A stretch of 64,000 bases of DNA from a candidate division WOR-1 bacterium RIFOXYB2_FULL_37_13 (GCA_001771535.1 MEUB01000036.1:842-64841); one strand, 5' to 3'. Positions 21,077 through 33,785 are shown, numbered from the stretch's first letter. Notes: generated from the letters alone by a model not told the origin. Made by a program: numbers and translations.

Positions 21077-21881
21077 AAGCCTGTAACAAAAACATCAAGA
21101 CCTAACCAAAGAACTCAAAGATGGCACAAGGAAAACCATAAAATGTTTTAGGTTGGAGAATGTAGAAATATGGGGGATGAAGAGGACTGCCGTTATGTAT
21201 TTTAGCGAAGCATTATATGACGGGCAGGTAAGGGGATGGAAAAAGATTTAAAAAAAGCAATTGAAAATTTGGAAAGTTTCAAGCTATCAGGCATGAAAGG
21301 GAGTTTTTGGCACAAGAGAAAAAAATGTATGTGGACAAAAGAGCTTTTTGAAAGAGAGGCTGAAAAAATAGTTAATAAACAATTTATTAGAGATATCGTT
21401 GATATTAAGTGAAAAAAACAGGCAAGTAATTTATTTAGAATATGAGATTAACACACAAAAAAAGAATTTTTTGAAAAATACAGTTTTAGGGAAAAGAATC
21501 TTAATAACAAGCCGGCAGGACTGGAATAATGAGGAGATAGTTTTAGCTTATCAGGGGCAAAAGGATGTTGAGTTTGCGTTTAGGCAAATAAAAAATCCAT
21601 TTCATACCTGTATCAGACCTCAATATCATTGGACAGATCAAAAGATAAAAGTTCATGTGCTTTGTTCCATTATTGCATTTACTATTTGCGCTTTAATTGA
21701 AAAGACCGCAAGAGAGAATGATTGTCCTTTTATAATAAACGACATTTTGGATCGCTTATCTTCAATACGAAAAGTAAAATACATAATCCCCAAAACTAAA
21801 AATAAATTCAACATTGAATACGGTATGGAAGAAATCGAAGATGAAGCAACAAGAAAATTATTTGAAGTTTTGATGAAATAA
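21070..21881 (+). pseudogene. decayed IS4/IS1634-like transposase (frame-broken fragments; the 21399..21881 ORF carries the C-terminal DDE region)
   Basis: C-terminal motif AFRQIKNPFHTCIRPQYHWTDQKIKVHVLCSIIAFTI resembles the IS4/IS1634 C-terminal consensus (...glRPiyHw...ri.gHlf...A); upstream frames are broken into 26-aa and 58-aa pieces. Confidence 0.55.
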
Positions 21882-22006
21882 TATATTTTTGGTGTATACA
21901 AGCTGTTCTTCTGAAAGTCAACAATGACAAGCCATGCAGGCTTTTTTATTTCTCCAGCAGTAAACTCACGCTAGCCCCGTTTCATAAAAAACAATTGGCT
22001 CTTTCT

Positions 22007-22474
22007 TTACTTAAAATTAAAAGCCACATTTTTTGTATTTTTAGGATCTATTTTAACAGGAAGAATAGCTCCAACCTGCATAAGATGTATAGCATTAAAA
22101 GGTATTACAAACCCATCTTCAACTATATAAGCAGGATACATAGGTGATGATATTTCTAATTTTATATCCATTACAGGCTGATAATTTAATTGGGTTTTTG
22201 ATGTTGCTATGCTTAATATTTCCCCCTTTCCATCAATCCCTTTTTTTAAAATATCTTTATCCCCAACAAAATTCCTCCAAATTACTTTTAATCCCTTGCT
22301 AAAAAACAACAGCAACAAAAGTATAGGCAGTAAAATTATTGCAATATTTATAATAGGAGTTATGCCAAAGTCTGTAATATTGCCAACATTGGAAAAATTC
22401 AAAATGAAAACTGAAGGAAGAACAAAAAAGATCCCAAAAATGACAAAAATAAGTACAAACTTTTCAGATCTCAT
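22007..22474 (-). CDS. DUF3592-like membrane protein, paralog 1 of 3 (N-terminal TM, OB-like core, GAxxPVKxDPKN motif)
   Basis: paralogous to 32879..33739 and to the split gene 29223..29474/31993..32274; shared upstream promoter module. Confidence 0.6.
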   Translation of the reverse strand: MRSEKFVLIFVIFGIFFVLPSVFILNFSNVGNITDFGITPIINIAIILLPILLLLLFFSKGLKVIWRNFVGDKDILKKGIDGKGEILSIATSKTQLNYQPVMDIKLEISSPMYPAYIVEDGFVIPFNAIHLMQVGAILPVKIDPKNTKNVAFNFK

Positions 22475-28800: not shown

Positions 28801-29226
28801 ATGTCAGACAAATTATTGATAATTTCAGTTATAATCGCAGGTTTAATTGTTTCTTTATTTATCGTATTTAATAACAACCCTATAAGTAAAACTGTATCCA
28901 CTTTTATGACAGATATAAACAGAATAAAGATTCCAAACAGTTTCCCCAAAGATATTCCAATTTACCCAAATGCAAAAGTTGAAACCTTATCAATTAAAAA
29001 AAGCCAGACCCTTCTTGTCCTTATTTCCAAAGATAGCCCGACACAAATAAACAACTTCTATGCTTTAGAAATAAAAAAATACGGCTGGACATATACATCA
29101 AAAGACATTAATTTCTATGCGTCAACCAAAGAACATCGTGAATTATTTGTTTCTATATCCAAACTCCCTGAAGAGATAAACAAAAATGGACATTATATAG
29201 TAATCAATGAAACAACTAAAGATTAA
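28801..29226 (+). CDS. small N-terminally anchored secreted protein, paralog of 32372..32872
   Basis: N-terminal TM/signal; shared motifs FPKD(I/L)P(I/V)Y.N.K and NFY...K.GW. Confidence 0.55.
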   Translation: MSDKLLIISVIIAGLIVSLFIVFNNNPISKTVSTFMTDINRIKIPNSFPKDIPIYPNAKVETLSIKKSQTLLVLISKDSPTQINNFYALEIKKYGWTYTSKDINFYASTKEHRELFVSISKLPEEINKNGHYIVINETTKD

Positions 29227-29474
29227 AGCGCAGTTTTTTCCCCTGAAGGATTAATATTCCAGGCATTTATAGCTACCCTTTTTGGGTTTTTTGGATCAAC
29301 CTTAACGGGGATAACGGCTCCCAACTGGATAAGAGAAAGCCCCATTAAAGGAATCAAAAATTTGTTTTCTATAATATAATATTCGAGCTTGTCCGTCAAC
29401 TCCCAGTCTTGTCTAATGCAAGATGTCCCTGAAGTAAAGACTGTTTCTAACGCAAAATGTCCCTGAAATGTCAT
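29223..29474 (-). pseudogene. C-terminal fragment of a DUF3592-like paralog split by IS insertion
   Basis: ...LIPLMGLSLIQLGAVIPVKVDPKNPKRVAINAWNINPS matches the intact paralog; the N-terminal residues are encoded by the IS inverted repeat. Confidence 0.7.
29228..29375 (-). repeat. ~150-bp tract nearly identical to 33229..33378 (3' region of the DUF3592-like paralogs)
   Basis: CTGAAGGATTAATATTCCAGGCATTTATAGCTACCCTTTTTGGGTTTTTTGGATCAACCTTAACGGGGATAACGGCTCCCAAC(T/C)GGATAAGAGAAAGCCCCATTAAAGGAA shared with only a few mismatches, while the flanks are diverged. Confidence 0.75.
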
Positions 29475-29484
29475 TATCGAGCTT

Positions 29485-30000
29485 ATGAATAAGCTAATAA
29501 TGATGGATCATAAAATAAAAACTGTTTCGAATCTTGAAAATCTTCTAAAAGCTGTGGTGAATTTAGATTTTCAACTAATTGACAAAAAAACTACCTACGA
29601 TTGGATTGATGATATTTTAAAAAGATTCAATTACATGTCTGCTTCAAAGAAACATAAAGGAATTTTAAAGCGTTACATTATGAAAATGACTGGTTATAGC
29701 GGTCGACAAGTTAAAAGGCTCATCAAAAAGCAATTTCAAACTGGAAAATTGACAATAAGTAAAAGTTCTAACCGTTGCAAATTCAAAAATATATACACCA
29801 AAAAAGATATCGCTTTGCTGGTTAAAACGGATAATCTTCACAATCGCTTAAATGGGTTAGCCACTAAAAAGATTTTTGAAACCGAGCATTTTACTTATGG
29901 AAAAAAGAAATATGAAAGGTTAAGTAAAATCTCTATAGCTCATATTTACAACTTGCGAAAAACTACGACATTGATCTTCCCCCCAAAAAGTAGACAGTAA
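29485..30000 (+). pseudogene. N-terminal (HTH) part of the IS481-like transposase, truncated by IS3 insertion
   Basis: KRYIMKMTGYSGRQVKRLIKK HTH-like segment; the ORF terminates inside the IS3 left inverted repeat. Confidence 0.6.
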
Positions 30001-30001
30001 A

Positions 30002-30862
30002 TTATGCATTCACGAACTTTTTTTCAAAGTTGTCTGGCGACAGAAACCCTATGGACGAGTGCCTTCTCTGTCGATTATAGAACACTTCGATGTAATTGAA
30101 AATGGACTGCCGCGCCTCCTTTCTTGTGGCATATCTTTCAAAATAGACTTGTTCAGTCTTCAATGAATGAAAGAAACTCTCGGTTATAGCATTATCGTAA
30201 CACCTCCCTTTGCGACTCATGCTTTGAATGAAACCATAATTGTTAAGCAATAGTCTCGTATCTCTGGCCGCATATTGAATACCTCGATCAGAATGAAATA
30301 TTATATTTTTGCCTGGCTGGCGGCTCAAGATAGCACCCTTTATGGCCTTGACCACCAATTGGCTTTCTAGGTGCTTTCCCATAGACCATCCGACAATCTT
30401 TCTGGAAAAGACATCAAGAACAACTGCAAGATAAAGCCAGCCCTCCAATGTCCAGATGTATGTAATATCTGATGTCCAGACTCGATTGGCTGATGCTGAA
30501 ACAAAGTTTTGCTTTAGAATATTTGGAGCTACTGGCAAAGTGTGCTGAGAATCAGTTGTCACTCTAAATTTTCTTCTTGTCTTAGCCACAAATTTGCCTT
30601 TCATAAGACGCTCAATCCTTTTTTTATTGTAATGATAACCTTGGCTCTTAAGTTCGGCACAAACTCTGGGCCGACCATAAAGCTCATGGTTTTCAAAAAA
30701 AATCTTCTTGATCTTATCCAGCAAAACCTCATTTTCTGTTTCTCTTTGGCTTTTCTCTCCCCTTAGCCATTTGTAATAGCCGCTTCGTGATACATCTAAC
30801 AACTGGCACATCTTCTCAACCGGAAAGTCGAAGCATTGCTCTCTTACAAACATAAATCTCAT
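30002..30862 (-). CDS. IS3 family transposase OrfB (DDE integrase core), expressed by -1 frameshift from OrfA
   Basis: rve-type core: WTSDITYIW, HSDRGIQY, YDNAITESFF; IS3 DDE(35)E spacing. Confidence 0.8.
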   Translation of the reverse strand: MRFMFVREQCFDFPVEKMCQLLDVSRSGYYKWLRGEKSQRETENEVLLDKIKKIFFENHELYGRPRVCAELKSQGYHYNKKRIERLMKGKFVAKTRRKFRVTTDSQHTLPVAPNILKQNFVSASANRVWTSDITYIWTLEGWLYLAVVLDVFSRKIVGWSMGKHLESQLVVKAIKGAILSRQPGKNIIFHSDRGIQYAARDTRLLLNNYGFIQSMSRKGRCYDNAITESFFHSLKTEQVYFERYATRKEARQSIFNYIEVFYNRQRRHSSIGFLSPDNFEKKFVNA

Positions 30863-31158
30863 CTCGGTTGTTTGGAGAAGATGGCCACTGCTTTTTTTAA
30901 AATATCTCGCTCCAACCTGGCCTCTGCCAACTCTTTTCTTAAACGCCTGATTTTAAGAGATTCCTCAATCCCTCCGCTTGTTTCTCCGTCTTCTCCCTCT
31001 CTTCGATCACGTTTTTGCCATCCATACAGCGTACTCGATGACACTCCTAAATCTTTAGCAATTGAGGCTACAGGTCGCTTGCTGGTATTAATTAAATCCA
31101 GCGTTTCCCTAATGAAGTCCTTATCACACCGTTTATATGGTCCTTTCTTTTTCCCCAT
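30859..31158 (-). CDS. IS3 family transposase OrfA (HTH)
   Basis: IS3/IS911-type HTH (VASIAKDLGVSSSTLYGWQK) and leucine zipper. Confidence 0.8.
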   Translation of the reverse strand: MGKKKGPYKRCDKDFIRETLDLINTSKRPVASIAKDLGVSSSTLYGWQKRDRREGEDGETSGGIEESLKIRRLRKELAEARLERDILKKAVAIFSKQPR

Positions 31159-31227
31159 AAAATCCCCCCCCTCTAATATATTATCAAAATCTCTAATTAC
31201 TGTGTCTACTAAAAGGGGGGAGGGTCA

Positions 31228-31985
31228 CATATCGTGACAGATCAATTACTTTCACCAAGACTAATCCAAGGAAAATTAATATCGGCGAAAGAAAACGCCC
31301 TGAACCTCAAGGCAAGCCAGGCTATATCCGCGTAGATACTGTGCATCAGGGCGATTCCGACAAACAAAAAGGGGTCTATTATATAAATACTGTCGACGAA
31401 GTTACCCAATGGCAGGCAATTGCCGCTGTAGAAAAAATATCTGAAACATATTTACTCGAGGCTCTCTTAGGCTTGCTCAATCAATTTCCATTTGAAATCA
31501 TTGAATTTCATAGCGACAATGGTTCAGAATACATCAACAGACAAGTCGCAGAACTTTTAAACAGACTTTTAATTAAACTTACGAAATCTCGAGCTAGACA
31601 CTGTAATGATAACGCTTTAGTAGAGTCAAAAAATGGGGCTGTAATTAGAAAATGGATGGGCTATGCTCATATTCCTCAGAAACATGCCCAAGACATCAAC
31701 AAATTCTTTAAAAAATATTTTAATTTATATTTAAACTACTACAGACCTTCTATTTTCCCTGAAATTGTATTTTCTGCAAAAAGAAAAGAGGTCAAAAAAT
31801 ACAGATATGAGAATACAATGACCCCTTTCGCAAAACTAAAATCCATTTTTGAATACAAAAAGTTCCTCAAAAAGAATACTTCCGTCGTTGACTTAGAATT
31901 GTTTTTAAGCAATGATAGTCCTAATGAGTTTGCTGAAAAGGTGGTGAAGGCTCAAGATTGTCTCTTTAATGGCATTTCTACCTAA
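31228..31985 (+). pseudogene. C-terminal (DDE catalytic core) part of the IS481-like transposase, downstream of the nested IS3
   Basis: HSDNGSEY and CNDNALVESKNGAVIRKWMGY motifs (rve family); same frame as 29485..30000 once the 1256-bp IS3 and its 3-bp duplication are removed. Confidence 0.6.
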
Positions 31986-31992
31986 CCCTTTT

Positions 31993-32274
31993 TCAGGGAC
32001 ATTCTTGCATTAGAAAATACTCTCCCTTTTCACGAAGCTCCTGATCACTAACCAATGAAGTCCACAGAATCTTAAGAACAGAAATTATAAAAGGAAGAAA
32101 AATCAAGATCGACACAACAGGAATAGCTACGGGTAAAATATCACTCGGTCGCGAACCAAACCCCATAGCAACTCGGCTTCTATACATATCCAAAAAAACA
32201 GCTGGAATTATACCAAAAAAAGCAACGGTAAAAATAAAAATAGAAAAAATAATTATAAATTTTGCTGATCTCAT
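31993..32274 (-). pseudogene. N-terminal fragment of a DUF3592-like paralog split by IS insertion
   Basis: MRSAKFIII..RSRVAMG..SDQELREKGEY then FLMQECP-stop encoded by the IS right inverted repeat. Confidence 0.7.
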
Positions 32275-32371
32275 CTCTCCACCTCAATAACAGCTTAAAT
32301 TAGGAGAAATGCTTTGTCAATAAAGGTTTAAGTAGTATAATGCCTATACATTTAGTAAAAGGAGTTGTCAT

Positions 32372-32872
32372 ATGAATAAAGGTTTATTGATTGGCGTCAT
32401 AGTTTTGGGATTGATCGCATCTCTGTTTGTAGTCTTTAATTACAACTCAATGTTCGGTCTAGTCGTAGGTTTTATGACAGGGGGAGAAACTACTTGGAAC
32501 AACAATGCTTTAGGAACTAACCAGGGAGGCATAATTCACTTAGCCGCAATGCCGGGGAAAGGAATAAATCCCCCAAAACAGTTTCCAAAAGATTTACCTG
32601 TATATTCAAACAGTAAAATTATTACTCTGCATATAGATACAACACAAACTCCAAACTTGATCAATATAATAATGGAATCTGACGATGATGCAAATACAGT
32701 ACACAATTTTTATAAATCTGAAATGCAAAAGAATGGATGGGCGTTGAAAAGTGAAAATGGTTCAGTTTTTATGACAGATTGGACAAAAGACATCCGCAAA
32801 TTGAGCATTATGATATCTCAAGGCAAACGGGGAAATCCAAATACGCCAGGATGTTCTATAATGATTAATTAA
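32372..32872 (+). CDS. small N-terminally anchored secreted protein, paralog of 28801..29226
   Basis: TM/signal N-terminus, PKQFPKDLPVYSNSKI and NFYKSEMQKNGW motifs shared with the paralog; RBS AAAGGAG. Confidence 0.55.
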   Translation: MNKGLLIGVIVLGLIASLFVVFNYNSMFGLVVGFMTGGETTWNNNALGTNQGGIIHLAAMPGKGINPPKQFPKDLPVYSNSKIITLHIDTTQTPNLINIIMESDDDANTVHNFYKSEMQKNGWALKSENGSVFMTDWTKDIRKLSIMISQGKRGNPNTPGCSIMIN

Positions 32873-32878
32873 GCCTTA

Positions 32879-33739
32879 TTATATAGGCTTTTGTATACTT
32901 CCAGTCATAGCTATCATGACATGTGTTGGATCATTGTTGTCTATTTCACAAGGATATACAGCTCCCACTCTAATAAGTTGTAAGGCAACATCCGGCAAAG
33001 GCATCTCTTTATCAAGAACATATGGAGTTATTCCTTCTCCGGTTACCTCATATTTAAGAGAATAAACTTTTTGACCATTTTTTGTCTTTTCCGCATCGGC
33101 AAAACCCATTATCCTAGCCTGGCCTTTTTTTCCATTAACCACAACGCCTCGCTCCACATTCCCAGCAACCCCTAAATTTTGAAAATTTACAGGCATCCCT
33201 TGCATTATGGGTTGTCCTTGAAAATTTTGCGCAGTTCTTTTTTCTGAAGGATTAATATTCCAGGCATTTATAGCTACCCTTTTTGGGTTTTTTGGATCAA
33301 CCTTAACGGGGATAACGGCTCCCAACCGGATAAGAGAAAGCCCCATTAAAGGAACCATAAATTTGTCTTCTACAATATAAGGAGGCTGGTTTGAGGTCGA
33401 CACTTCCAGTTTCAGTTTCATCATCGGTTGATTGTTTATTTGCGTTCCGGTCTGAATAACCTCCAAAATTCGCGCTTGCCCGTCAACTCCTTTTTCACGA
33501 AGTTCTTGATCACTAAATATCATTTTCCAGATTATTTTAATAGGGCCAATCAAAGAAGGAATAACAAAAAAAATAATCGCAATAATAAATACTATCGGCA
33601 AAAAATCTATCGGACGCAAACTAAGTCCCATATCGACTCTACTTCTATAAATATTCAGAAAAACGGCCGGAAGAACACCAAAACAAACAACAATAAAAAC
33701 AAAAACAGAAGAAATAATTGCAAATTTTACTGATCTCAT
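32879..33739 (-). CDS. DUF3592-like membrane protein, intact two-domain paralog (286 aa)
   Basis: MRSVKFAII..RSRVDMG..SDQELREKG..GAVIPVKVDPKNPKRVAI, then a second degenerate copy (VGAVYPCEIDNNDPTHVMI); RBS GAGGTG. Confidence 0.65.
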   Translation of the reverse strand: MRSVKFAIISSVFVFIVVCFGVLPAVFLNIYRSRVDMGLSLRPIDFLPIVFIIAIIFFVIPSLIGPIKIIWKMIFSDQELREKGVDGQARILEVIQTGTQINNQPMMKLKLEVSTSNQPPYIVEDKFMVPLMGLSLIRLGAVIPVKVDPKNPKRVAINAWNINPSEKRTAQNFQGQPIMQGMPVNFQNLGVAGNVERGVVVNGKKGQARIMGFADAEKTKNGQKVYSLKYEVTGEGITPYVLDKEMPLPDVALQLIRVGAVYPCEIDNNDPTHVMIAMTGSIQKPI

Positions 33740-33756
33740 TTTTTCACCTCAATGAC

Positions 33757-33785
33757 AGCTTAAAATAGTAGAACTGCTTTGTCAA
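33757..33785 (-). promoter_or_regulatory. minus-strand promoter (TTGACA-17-TAAGCT) plus a GAGGTG RBS for the DUF3592-like paralog; conserved upstream of all three paralogs
   Basis: conserved block CACCTCAA..ACAGCTTAA...TGCTTTGTCAATAA.GG.TTAAG at 22480..22530, 32280..32330 and 33745..33795. Confidence 0.4.

Follow-up and report, generated by a model that had tools for sequence, protein, structure and literature searches.

How did the two parts of one membrane-protein gene come to lie on either side of a broken transposase gene, with the complete genes of a second transposase lodged inside the first, and in what order did this happen? The locus belongs to a stretch of 64,000 nucleotides (hereafter the window; MEUB01000036.1:842-64841) from RIFOXYB2_FULL_37_13 (GCA_001771535.1), a metagenome-assembled genome of candidate division WOR-1 (Saganbacteria) recovered from groundwater of the Rifle aquifer. 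A preliminary description, made from the sequence without database searches, had proposed an intact IS3-family element inside an IS481-like transposase gene that had itself split a DUF3592-like paralog. Our analysis leaves little doubt as to the overall architecture: an IS3-family insertion sequence (IS) interrupts the transposase gene of another, outer IS, itself lodged in the paralog, as the outcome of three successive events. The nested structure is real and is a piece of ordinary genome wear, nested insertions being common in IS-rich genomes. Its parts are as follows (positions counted from the first nucleotide of the window; IR, terminal inverted repeat):

29400..29404, no strand: left CTCCC, 5-bp target-site duplication of the outer IS (perfect direct repeat)
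29405..32021, plus strand: outer IS, distant ISLbi1/ISNCY-like, 2617 bp as found (termini from relatives L003-L010, L024 and L030)
29405..29433, plus strand: left IR of the outer IS, AGTCTTGTCTAATGCAAGATGTCCCTGAA (repeat search and relatives)
29446..29467, plus strand: subterminal second copy of the IR core, left end of the outer IS (repeat search; kept across the clade)
29485..29971, plus strand: outer transposase gene, 5' part (codons 1-162 plus the first base of 163), N-terminal DNA-binding region
29969..29971, no strand: left CAT, 3-bp target-site duplication of the IS3 element (read from the sequence; CTT/CTT at other copies)
29972..31227, genes on the minus strand: inner IS3-family IS, 1256 bp (IRs, full-length copies of ~90% identity elsewhere, NCBIfam IS3 matches)
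31228..31230, no strand: right CAT, 3-bp target-site duplication of the IS3 element (read from the sequence)
31231..31985, plus strand: 3' part of the outer transposase gene, rve DDE core and C-terminal region (Pfam rve, residues 192-287)
31992..32021, minus strand: right IR of the outer IS, …TTCAGGGACATTCTTGCATTAGAAAATACT, the single site at the right end (comparison with relatives)
32022..32026, no strand: right CTCCC, 5-bp target-site duplication of the outer IS (perfect direct repeat)
32022..32274, minus strand: interrupted paralog, N-terminal part (nucleotide identity of 73% with the intact copy)
29223..29404, minus strand: C-terminal part of the interrupted paralog, with an 86-nt frameshifting deletion (junction ~29380/29381)
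32879..33739, minus strand: intact two-domain paralog of 286 aa, used as the reference for reconstruction

The nested reading stands on the firmer ground because each level is bordered by a perfect target-site duplication (3 bp for the inner element, 5 bp for the outer one) and because each excision in silico restores a reading frame. At the inner level, the deletion of 29972..31230 (the IS3 element and one CAT) joins 29485..29971 to 31231..31985 into an open reading frame (ORF) of 413 aa. A single transposase of ~415 aa had indeed been predicted, although the parts that fuse are these two and not the slightly different ones first given. The insertion falls in codon 163, upstream of the catalytic triad, and the point of insertion is read through both by a 91%-identical protein fragment (P0019) and by a DNA relative of 87% identity (L028). 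Over 98-100% of its length, the restored transposase aligns with thousands of proteins of ~408-430 aa, the best of which are 70% identical. The triad itself (D198, D258 and E294; spacing D-60-D-36-E) is invariant in a joint alignment that includes the transposase of ISLbi1.

At the outer level, the removal of 29405..32026 (the outer IS and one CTCCC) followed by translation of the minus strand gives MRSAKF…SDQELREKGVDGQARIL; the 17 residues over the restored junction (SDQELREKGVDGQARIL) are identical to those of the intact paralog, while the DNA is colinear and gapless there. The insertion point corresponds to codon ~85 of the paralog, and the outer IS, once relieved of the IS3 element and one CAT, measures 1358 bp.

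The ends of the outer IS were set at 29405 (AGTCTTGTC...) and 32021 (...GAAAATACT), because related copies diverge from their flanks at these very positions and because the perfect CTCCC repeat adjoins them. In eight loci with a transposase ~70% identical to ours (L003-L010), the sequence shared with the window extends on the left as far as AGTCTTGTC(C/T)AATGCAAGATGTCCCTGAA and on the right as far as …TTCAGGGACATTCTTG(C/T)ATT(A/G)GAAAATACT, and is divergent beyond. The bounds first proposed (29409..32016) were thus 4-5 nt too short on either side, and the CTCCC duplication had been overlooked. The element begins with AGTCTTGT… and finishes with …AATACT, and the terminal motifs AGTCTTGTCCAAT… and …ATACT are common to the eight loci and to a copy with a 50%-identical transposase in a 3.84-Mb genome (L030). 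The latter also features a 5-bp duplication (TTATT), which is the cleanest confirmation among the relatives; two further 5-bp duplications (GGCCG and TCATC) were recovered across L003-L008, solely by pairing flanks between contigs, most contigs of L003-L010 being chimeric at the flanks of multi-copy ISs. Finally, a contig of 1383 bp from Ignavibacteria aligns from its first to its last base with the restored outer element.

Within these ends, the IR core of 22 nt (TCTAATGCAAGATGTCCCTGAA, 29412-29433) is followed by a copy with two mismatches at 29446-29467, a repetition of which shuffled sequences yield none by chance, whereas the inverted copy at the right end shows a 1-nt indel with respect to the left one. 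The additional subterminal copy had been reported for this locus; it is there, yet it is not peculiar to it, since it is kept across the IS clade: relatives (~72% nucleotide identity) have it at the same offset, with one site at their right end, and L030 has the doubled left-end site as well. The two left sites and the single right one are putative transposase-binding sites.

Two observations on other copies may be added here. A 259.7-kb ENA/NCBI contig (ctg136983; L011, 3001-4872) bears a homologue of 623 aa (P0012), far longer than the usual ~410 aa, in an element whose left-end motif is doubled (TTCCAATATGAAATGAGCC twice) and whose right terminus reads …TTGGAAAATACT; the terminal motif is thus conserved even where the inner IR sequence is altered. 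A JGI contig (Ga0210017_1040794; L028, 115-1059) holds, in an unrelated context, the remains of an outer-type IS of 87% identity, truncated on its 5' side by the loss of approximately the first 426 bp, left end included, so that the lineage leaves decayed copies elsewhere too.

The topology of the nesting fixes the sequence of events: the paralog came first, the outer IS entered it, and the IS3 element followed. It is the order given in the preliminary description and, along with the topology, the duplications and the frame restorations agree with it. In the scenario that we propose, a short one-domain paralog of the small, N-terminally membrane-anchored protein family occupied the site at the start; a single-ORF DDE IS of 1358 bp then entered it at codon ~85, duplicating CTCCC; lastly, the 1256-bp IS3-family element entered codon 163 of the outer transposase gene, duplicating CAT. 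The two leftover ORFs (171 aa and 214 aa) are not competent transposases, because the IS3 element parts the DNA-binding region from the DDE core, and the outer IS is now non-autonomous owing to the split of its gene, even though its ends and its duplication are intact.

The inner IS3-family element

For the inner element, the limits proposed at the outset (29972..31227, flanked by CAT/CAT) are exact, both the IRs and the flanks being legible. The features it contains are:

29972..29996, no strand: IR on the orfB-distal side, TGATCTTCCCCCCAAAAAGTAGACA (inverted-repeat search)
31203..31227, no strand: IR on the orfA-proximal side, …GGGGGGAGGGTCA (inverted-repeat search and related copies)
30859..31158, minus strand: orfA, 99 aa, HTH_Tnp_1 (Pfam PF01527, E 1.6e-7)
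30002..30862, minus strand: orfB, 286 aa, HTH_21, rve and rve_2/rve_3 (Pfam; NCBIfam IS3)
30892..30898, minus strand: slippery heptamer A_AAA_AAA, in X_XXY_YYZ register with orfA
30798..30891, minus strand: predicted frameshift-stimulating stem-loop, core GGCCAUCUUCUC / GAGAAGAUGUGCC (RNA folding; directly 3' of the slippery site)

The element starts with TGATCTTCCCCCCAAAAAGTAGACA and finishes with TGTCTACTAAAAGGGGGGAGGGTCA, its IRs being imperfect (25 nt, 76% complementary) with TGA first. The orfB-distal IR occurs once in the window and is near-identical in ten related copies (L014-L023). Both orfA and orfB are open, in line with the claim that they carry no inactivating lesion; the frame of orfB is -1 with respect to that of orfA, and the two genes overlap at an ATGA stop/start. 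Against the NCBIfam model of the IS3 family (NF033516; 369 positions, cutoff 160 bits), orfB alone scores 340.4 bits. The A7 slippery site had also been recognized, one nucleotide off its actual position (30893..30899 instead of 30892..30898). Its context is TT A_AAA_AAA GCA, and the frame of orfB is open from 30952 across the heptamer. A -1 shift at A_AAA_AAA gives an OrfAB protein of 385 aa, which matches positions 2-369 of the 369 in NF033516 with 402.9 bits. The stretch immediately 3' of the heptamer is predicted to fold at -32 kcal/mol (z -4.27), none of 200 shuffled sequences being equally stable. The element would thereby produce OrfA and also OrfAB, the latter through a programmed -1 frameshift at the heptamer that precedes the stem-loop. 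By analogy with the family, transposition would proceed by a copy-out/paste-in route through a circular intermediate.

Membership of the IS3 family is borne out by the profile match, by the two-frame ORFs with their slippery heptamer and by the imperfect IRs with their 3-bp duplication. A weak match to the TnpB model of IS2 (37.7 bits against 597) speaks against the IS2 group. That the proposed ends should recur at the ends of other copies, as the preliminary description implied, is also observed: at least 24 contigs of metagenomes from this aquifer bear a 1253-bp variant with the same termini (~90% DNA identity; 93% protein identity for OrfA and 92% for OrfB), which is bordered by several distinct flanking sequences; 3-bp CTT/CTT duplications are legible around the copies of L014 and L019. 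The element family has been mobile in the aquifer community, and the inner element, intact by every sequence criterion, looks fully functional.

One further copy (L018, 319-1574) is 90.8% identical to the inner element; its orfA-side flank is the outer-IS sequence of the window (TGTCACGATATG), and a RhuM-family gene adjoins it on the opposite side. This contig is probably a chimeric assembly of the IS3 copy of the window and of the multi-copy variant.

The outer transposase and its clade

Which family does the outer element belong to? The preliminary description had called it IS481-like, though it admitted a family member of either IS481 or ISNCY as a match for the reconstruction. A genuine IS481-family member is improbable, even though, of the curated NCBIfam models, that of IS481 (NF033577) gives the restored transposase its highest score and IS481 elements likewise consist of a single ORF with an rve DDE domain. 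The score is indeed 54.7 bits (E 1e-14, residues 57-334) for a cutoff of 224 bits, hence below the threshold of the family, with 46.7 bits for the NCBIfam IS3 model; a close relative (P0003) obtains 51.3 bits with NF033577. The same sub-threshold pattern with the IS481 and IS3 models (47.7 bits) is displayed by the ISLbi1 transposase itself, which is a genuine ISNCY protein. Moreover, the alignment with ISLbi1 extends over residues 50-411, whereas the IS481 model covers the core only, and the outer IS ends in AGT…ACT, whereas IS481 elements end in TGT…ACA. The IS481-like label is acceptable only loosely, inasmuch as no curated profile comes nearer than IS481; the closest named relative of the outer element is ISLbi1, of the ISNCY category.

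BLASTP aligns the outer transposase with that of ISLbi1 over 385 aa, almost the entire protein, at 25% identity (E 3e-22), and the named tblastn matches among annotated plasmids are an 'ISNCY-like element ISLbi1 family transposase' (Leptospira biflexa p74) and an 'ISNCY family transposase' (Acidithiobacillus). The outer element is best described as a distant ISLbi1-like (ISNCY) element, its homology to the ISLbi1 transposase being clear at the level of the protein sequence; whether 25% identity places both in the same ISfinder group is a matter of curation. The two ISs of the locus are new and uncatalogued, but of kinds already known.

The outer transposase has matches to more than 7000 database proteins, mostly from groundwater and sediment metagenomes. 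A scan of a genome collection (species representatives, among which the source genome does not figure) with the restored transposase returned three loci, in Ignavibacteria (71%), in Saganbacteria CG08 (53%, partial) and in a spurious Endozoicomonas fragment. We tentatively raise the possibility that the outer element represents a very large and essentially undescribed IS clade, which, at only 25% identity to ISLbi1, might deserve a group or family of its own within the ISNCY bin. Its members have in common termini that are strongly conserved even at 50% transposase identity, asymmetric sites (two left, one right) and duplications of 5 bp. The size and coherence of this ISLbi1-like clade are the only mildly novel aspect of the locus, and the sequence-defined termini of so widespread a clade could be of use to ISfinder curators.

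Among annotated plasmids, the closest homologue of the outer transposase (42.7%) is a gene annotated 'integrase' in Polaromonas sp. P1-6 (CP087967, 509647-511499; L013), whose immediate upstream neighbour is annotated 'TniQ family protein'. This neighbourhood may reflect a link between the transposase clade and TniQ-type target selectors, or mere adjacency.

The interrupted paralog and the assembly

The outer element had been said to separate the two fragments of one paralog, and both fragments are present on either side. The gene was nevertheless not simply split: the interrupted copy also lacks 86 nt, ~24 nt away from the left end of the IS, which are present in the intact paralog and in a 155-aa member of the family (22007..22474). 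Because this gap shifts the frame, the paralog is a pseudogene independently of the IS, and a precise loss of the latter would not restore the gene. A deletion adjacent to, and mediated by, the IS was considered as the cause of the gap and rejected, 24 nt of colinear paralog sequence remaining before the IS end. In its organization, the interrupted copy resembles the 155-aa paralog, both being short and of a single domain; a second, repeated domain is present in the 286-aa protein. The idea that the IR sequences donate the terminal codons of both fragments proved right: the ORF of the N-terminal fragment ends in nine codons and a stop taken from the right IR, and that of the C-terminal fragment takes its ATG start codon from within the left end of the IS. 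In the latter ORF, the bases that code for VDGQARIL are read in another frame.

The fragments might alternatively stem from two different genes, which two copies of the outer IS would have brought together by homologous recombination. The unequal degrees to which they match the intact paralog (73% in the N-terminal part, 94% in the C-terminal part) and the discontinuity of 86 nt could be read in this way. Such an exchange would leave unrelated flanks, whereas the 17 restored junction residues are identical to the intact paralog; besides, a perfect CTCCC lies exactly at termini that were defined from other copies, and the deletion is 24 nt off the IS end and not at it. We thus regard a recombinational origin as very improbable and retain the insertion of the outer IS into a single paralog.

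The interrupted paralog is itself a mosaic with respect to its intact neighbour: its C-terminal 152 bp (29228-29379 vs. 33229-33380) are 94% identical and its N-terminal 278 bp (32022-32299 vs. 33487-33764) 73% identical, which suggests gene conversion or recombination between neighbouring paralogs.

Could the nesting be an artefact of the assembly? Many assemblies made independently of one another and from different samples show the nested structure or its junction ORFs with an identity of 99.9-100% (L001, L002, L035, L036, L037, L041 and L042), on contigs that span the whole of it (L035 and L037) or single junctions. The ORF across the paralog/IS junction occurs on 19 contigs, and in L038, which at first sight departs from this arrangement, the scaffold has a gap of 127 N. 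A chimeric join through repeats, which might be feared for a metagenome-assembled genome when the contigs of related multi-copy elements have plainly chimeric flanks and two contigs (L039 and L040) take another path through a 152-bp repeat, is scarcely credible, since mis-joins would not yield exact duplications and restored frames at both levels, the whole structure recurs at 99.9-100% across different samples and assemblers (L035, L037, L001, L002, L036 and L042) and neither element has a second copy within the 64-kb window.

L039 and L040, which are independent metagenome contigs, were compared with window positions 29228-29744 and 31853-33380. In both, the left end of the outer IS and the C-terminal fragment (29625/29744→29380) are joined to 33228→31853 through a hybrid of the 152-bp repeats 29228-29379 and 33229-33380, the crossover lying within an identical run of 83 nt. 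Such a junction is as expected of a tandem duplication or of an excised circle that arose through recombination of the repeats with each other; equally, it could be a switch of path by the assembler.

Several points weigh against parts of the account of nested and successive insertions given above. In JGI metagenome contigs, an exact 34-mer over the restored junction, designed on the empty-site allele of the paralog, had no match, and a degenerate 38-mer for an IS3-free copy of the same outer IS retrieved only the relative L028; with neither kind of copy in them, these contigs lend no support to a recent or polymorphic state of the insertions. The kinship with ISLbi1 is distant, at 25% identity. 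The stem-loop stretch is identical in the ~90% variant, and for this reason covariation lends it no support. As for a current activity of the IS3 element, it would follow solely from its intactness.

The paralogs belong to a local family. The window comprises three convergent gene pairs (21399-22474; 28801-29404 with 32022-32274; 32372-33739). In each, the plus-strand gene encodes a small protein anchored at its N-terminus, and its minus-strand partner a membrane-anchored paralog that resembles DUF3592. Among the plus-strand partners, the 141-aa and 166-aa proteins are 34% identical and the latter has a precomputed match to PF27226 (AF_1845), while the 160-aa ORF at 21399-21881 has no tblastn similarity to the 166-aa protein. 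The DUF3592-like label itself goes too far. With Pfam DUF3592 (PF12158), the 286-aa paralog obtains a sub-threshold match (E 0.055, 14.6 bits for a cutoff of 25.3) limited to residues 138-158, and the 155-aa paralog none; the N-terminal transmembrane segments and the motif 'G-A-V-x-P-V-K-V-D-P-K-N-P' are only suggestive of a resemblance.

Regarding base composition, the G+C content is 36.6% for the window, 40.9% for the inner element and 33.4% for the outer one. Nine proteins of the window have exact matches in the WOR-1 genomes RIFOXYC2_FULL_37_10 and RIFOXYB2_FULL_37_13, both from the Rifle aquifer, under which every piece treated above is deposited as 'hypothetical protein' or 'integrase catalytic domain-containing protein'. 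The value of the present analysis lies mainly in a clean annotation, without any new mechanism being revealed: four 'hypothetical protein' entries (OGC21737-OGC21740 and neighbours) become two defined mobile elements and one pseudogene, and two uncatalogued ISs of a candidate phylum are provided with exact ends and duplication lengths, together with the relative chronology of the events.

Comparison with known systems

The inner element resembles the IS3 family (IS3, IS911, IS407) in every structural respect: a length of ~1.25 kb, imperfect IRs beginning with TGA, a 3-bp target duplication, and an orfA (HTH) and orfB (rve DDE) in 0/-1 frames with an ATGA overlap and an A-rich slippery heptamer followed by a stem-loop. 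No structural difference was observed, and the identity to the nearest annotated plasmid-borne IS3 transposases is ~50%.

The outer element shares with IS481 its single ORF, with an N-terminal HTH and an rve DDE core, and differs from it by a longer transposase, which has a C-terminal extension beyond the model. A parallel in architecture is offered by the IS1202 family (ISAjo2/ISAba32), in which elements of ~1.4-1.5 kb with a large rve transposase and a 5-bp duplication possess an extra internal transposase-binding site that repeats the inner IR (PMC10132070). The ends of the outer IS are AGT…ACT and not TGT…ACA, and membership of this family, considered on account of the 5-bp duplication and the extra internal site, was rejected for want of significant sequence similarity (BLASTP against the ISAba32 transposase, E 0.096). 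Likewise, the outer transposase has no match to the NCBIfam model transpos_ISNCY_2 (NF033594), with which ISAba32 scores 481 bits.

ISLbi1 (Leptospira biflexa p74, WP_012476869.1) is similar to the outer IS in having a single-ORF rve DDE transposase of ~410-440 aa, in which many residues around the D/D/E triad are invariant too, and in repeating IR-core motifs near its ends. The terminal sequences are different, and ISLbi1 apparently carries two motif copies at both ends, whereas the present clade carries two on the left and one on the right. Members of the ISLbi1 group presumably measure ~1.4-1.5 kb, with IRs and a 5-bp duplication, a description that the outer IS, with its 1358 bp and its CTCCC repeat, fits.

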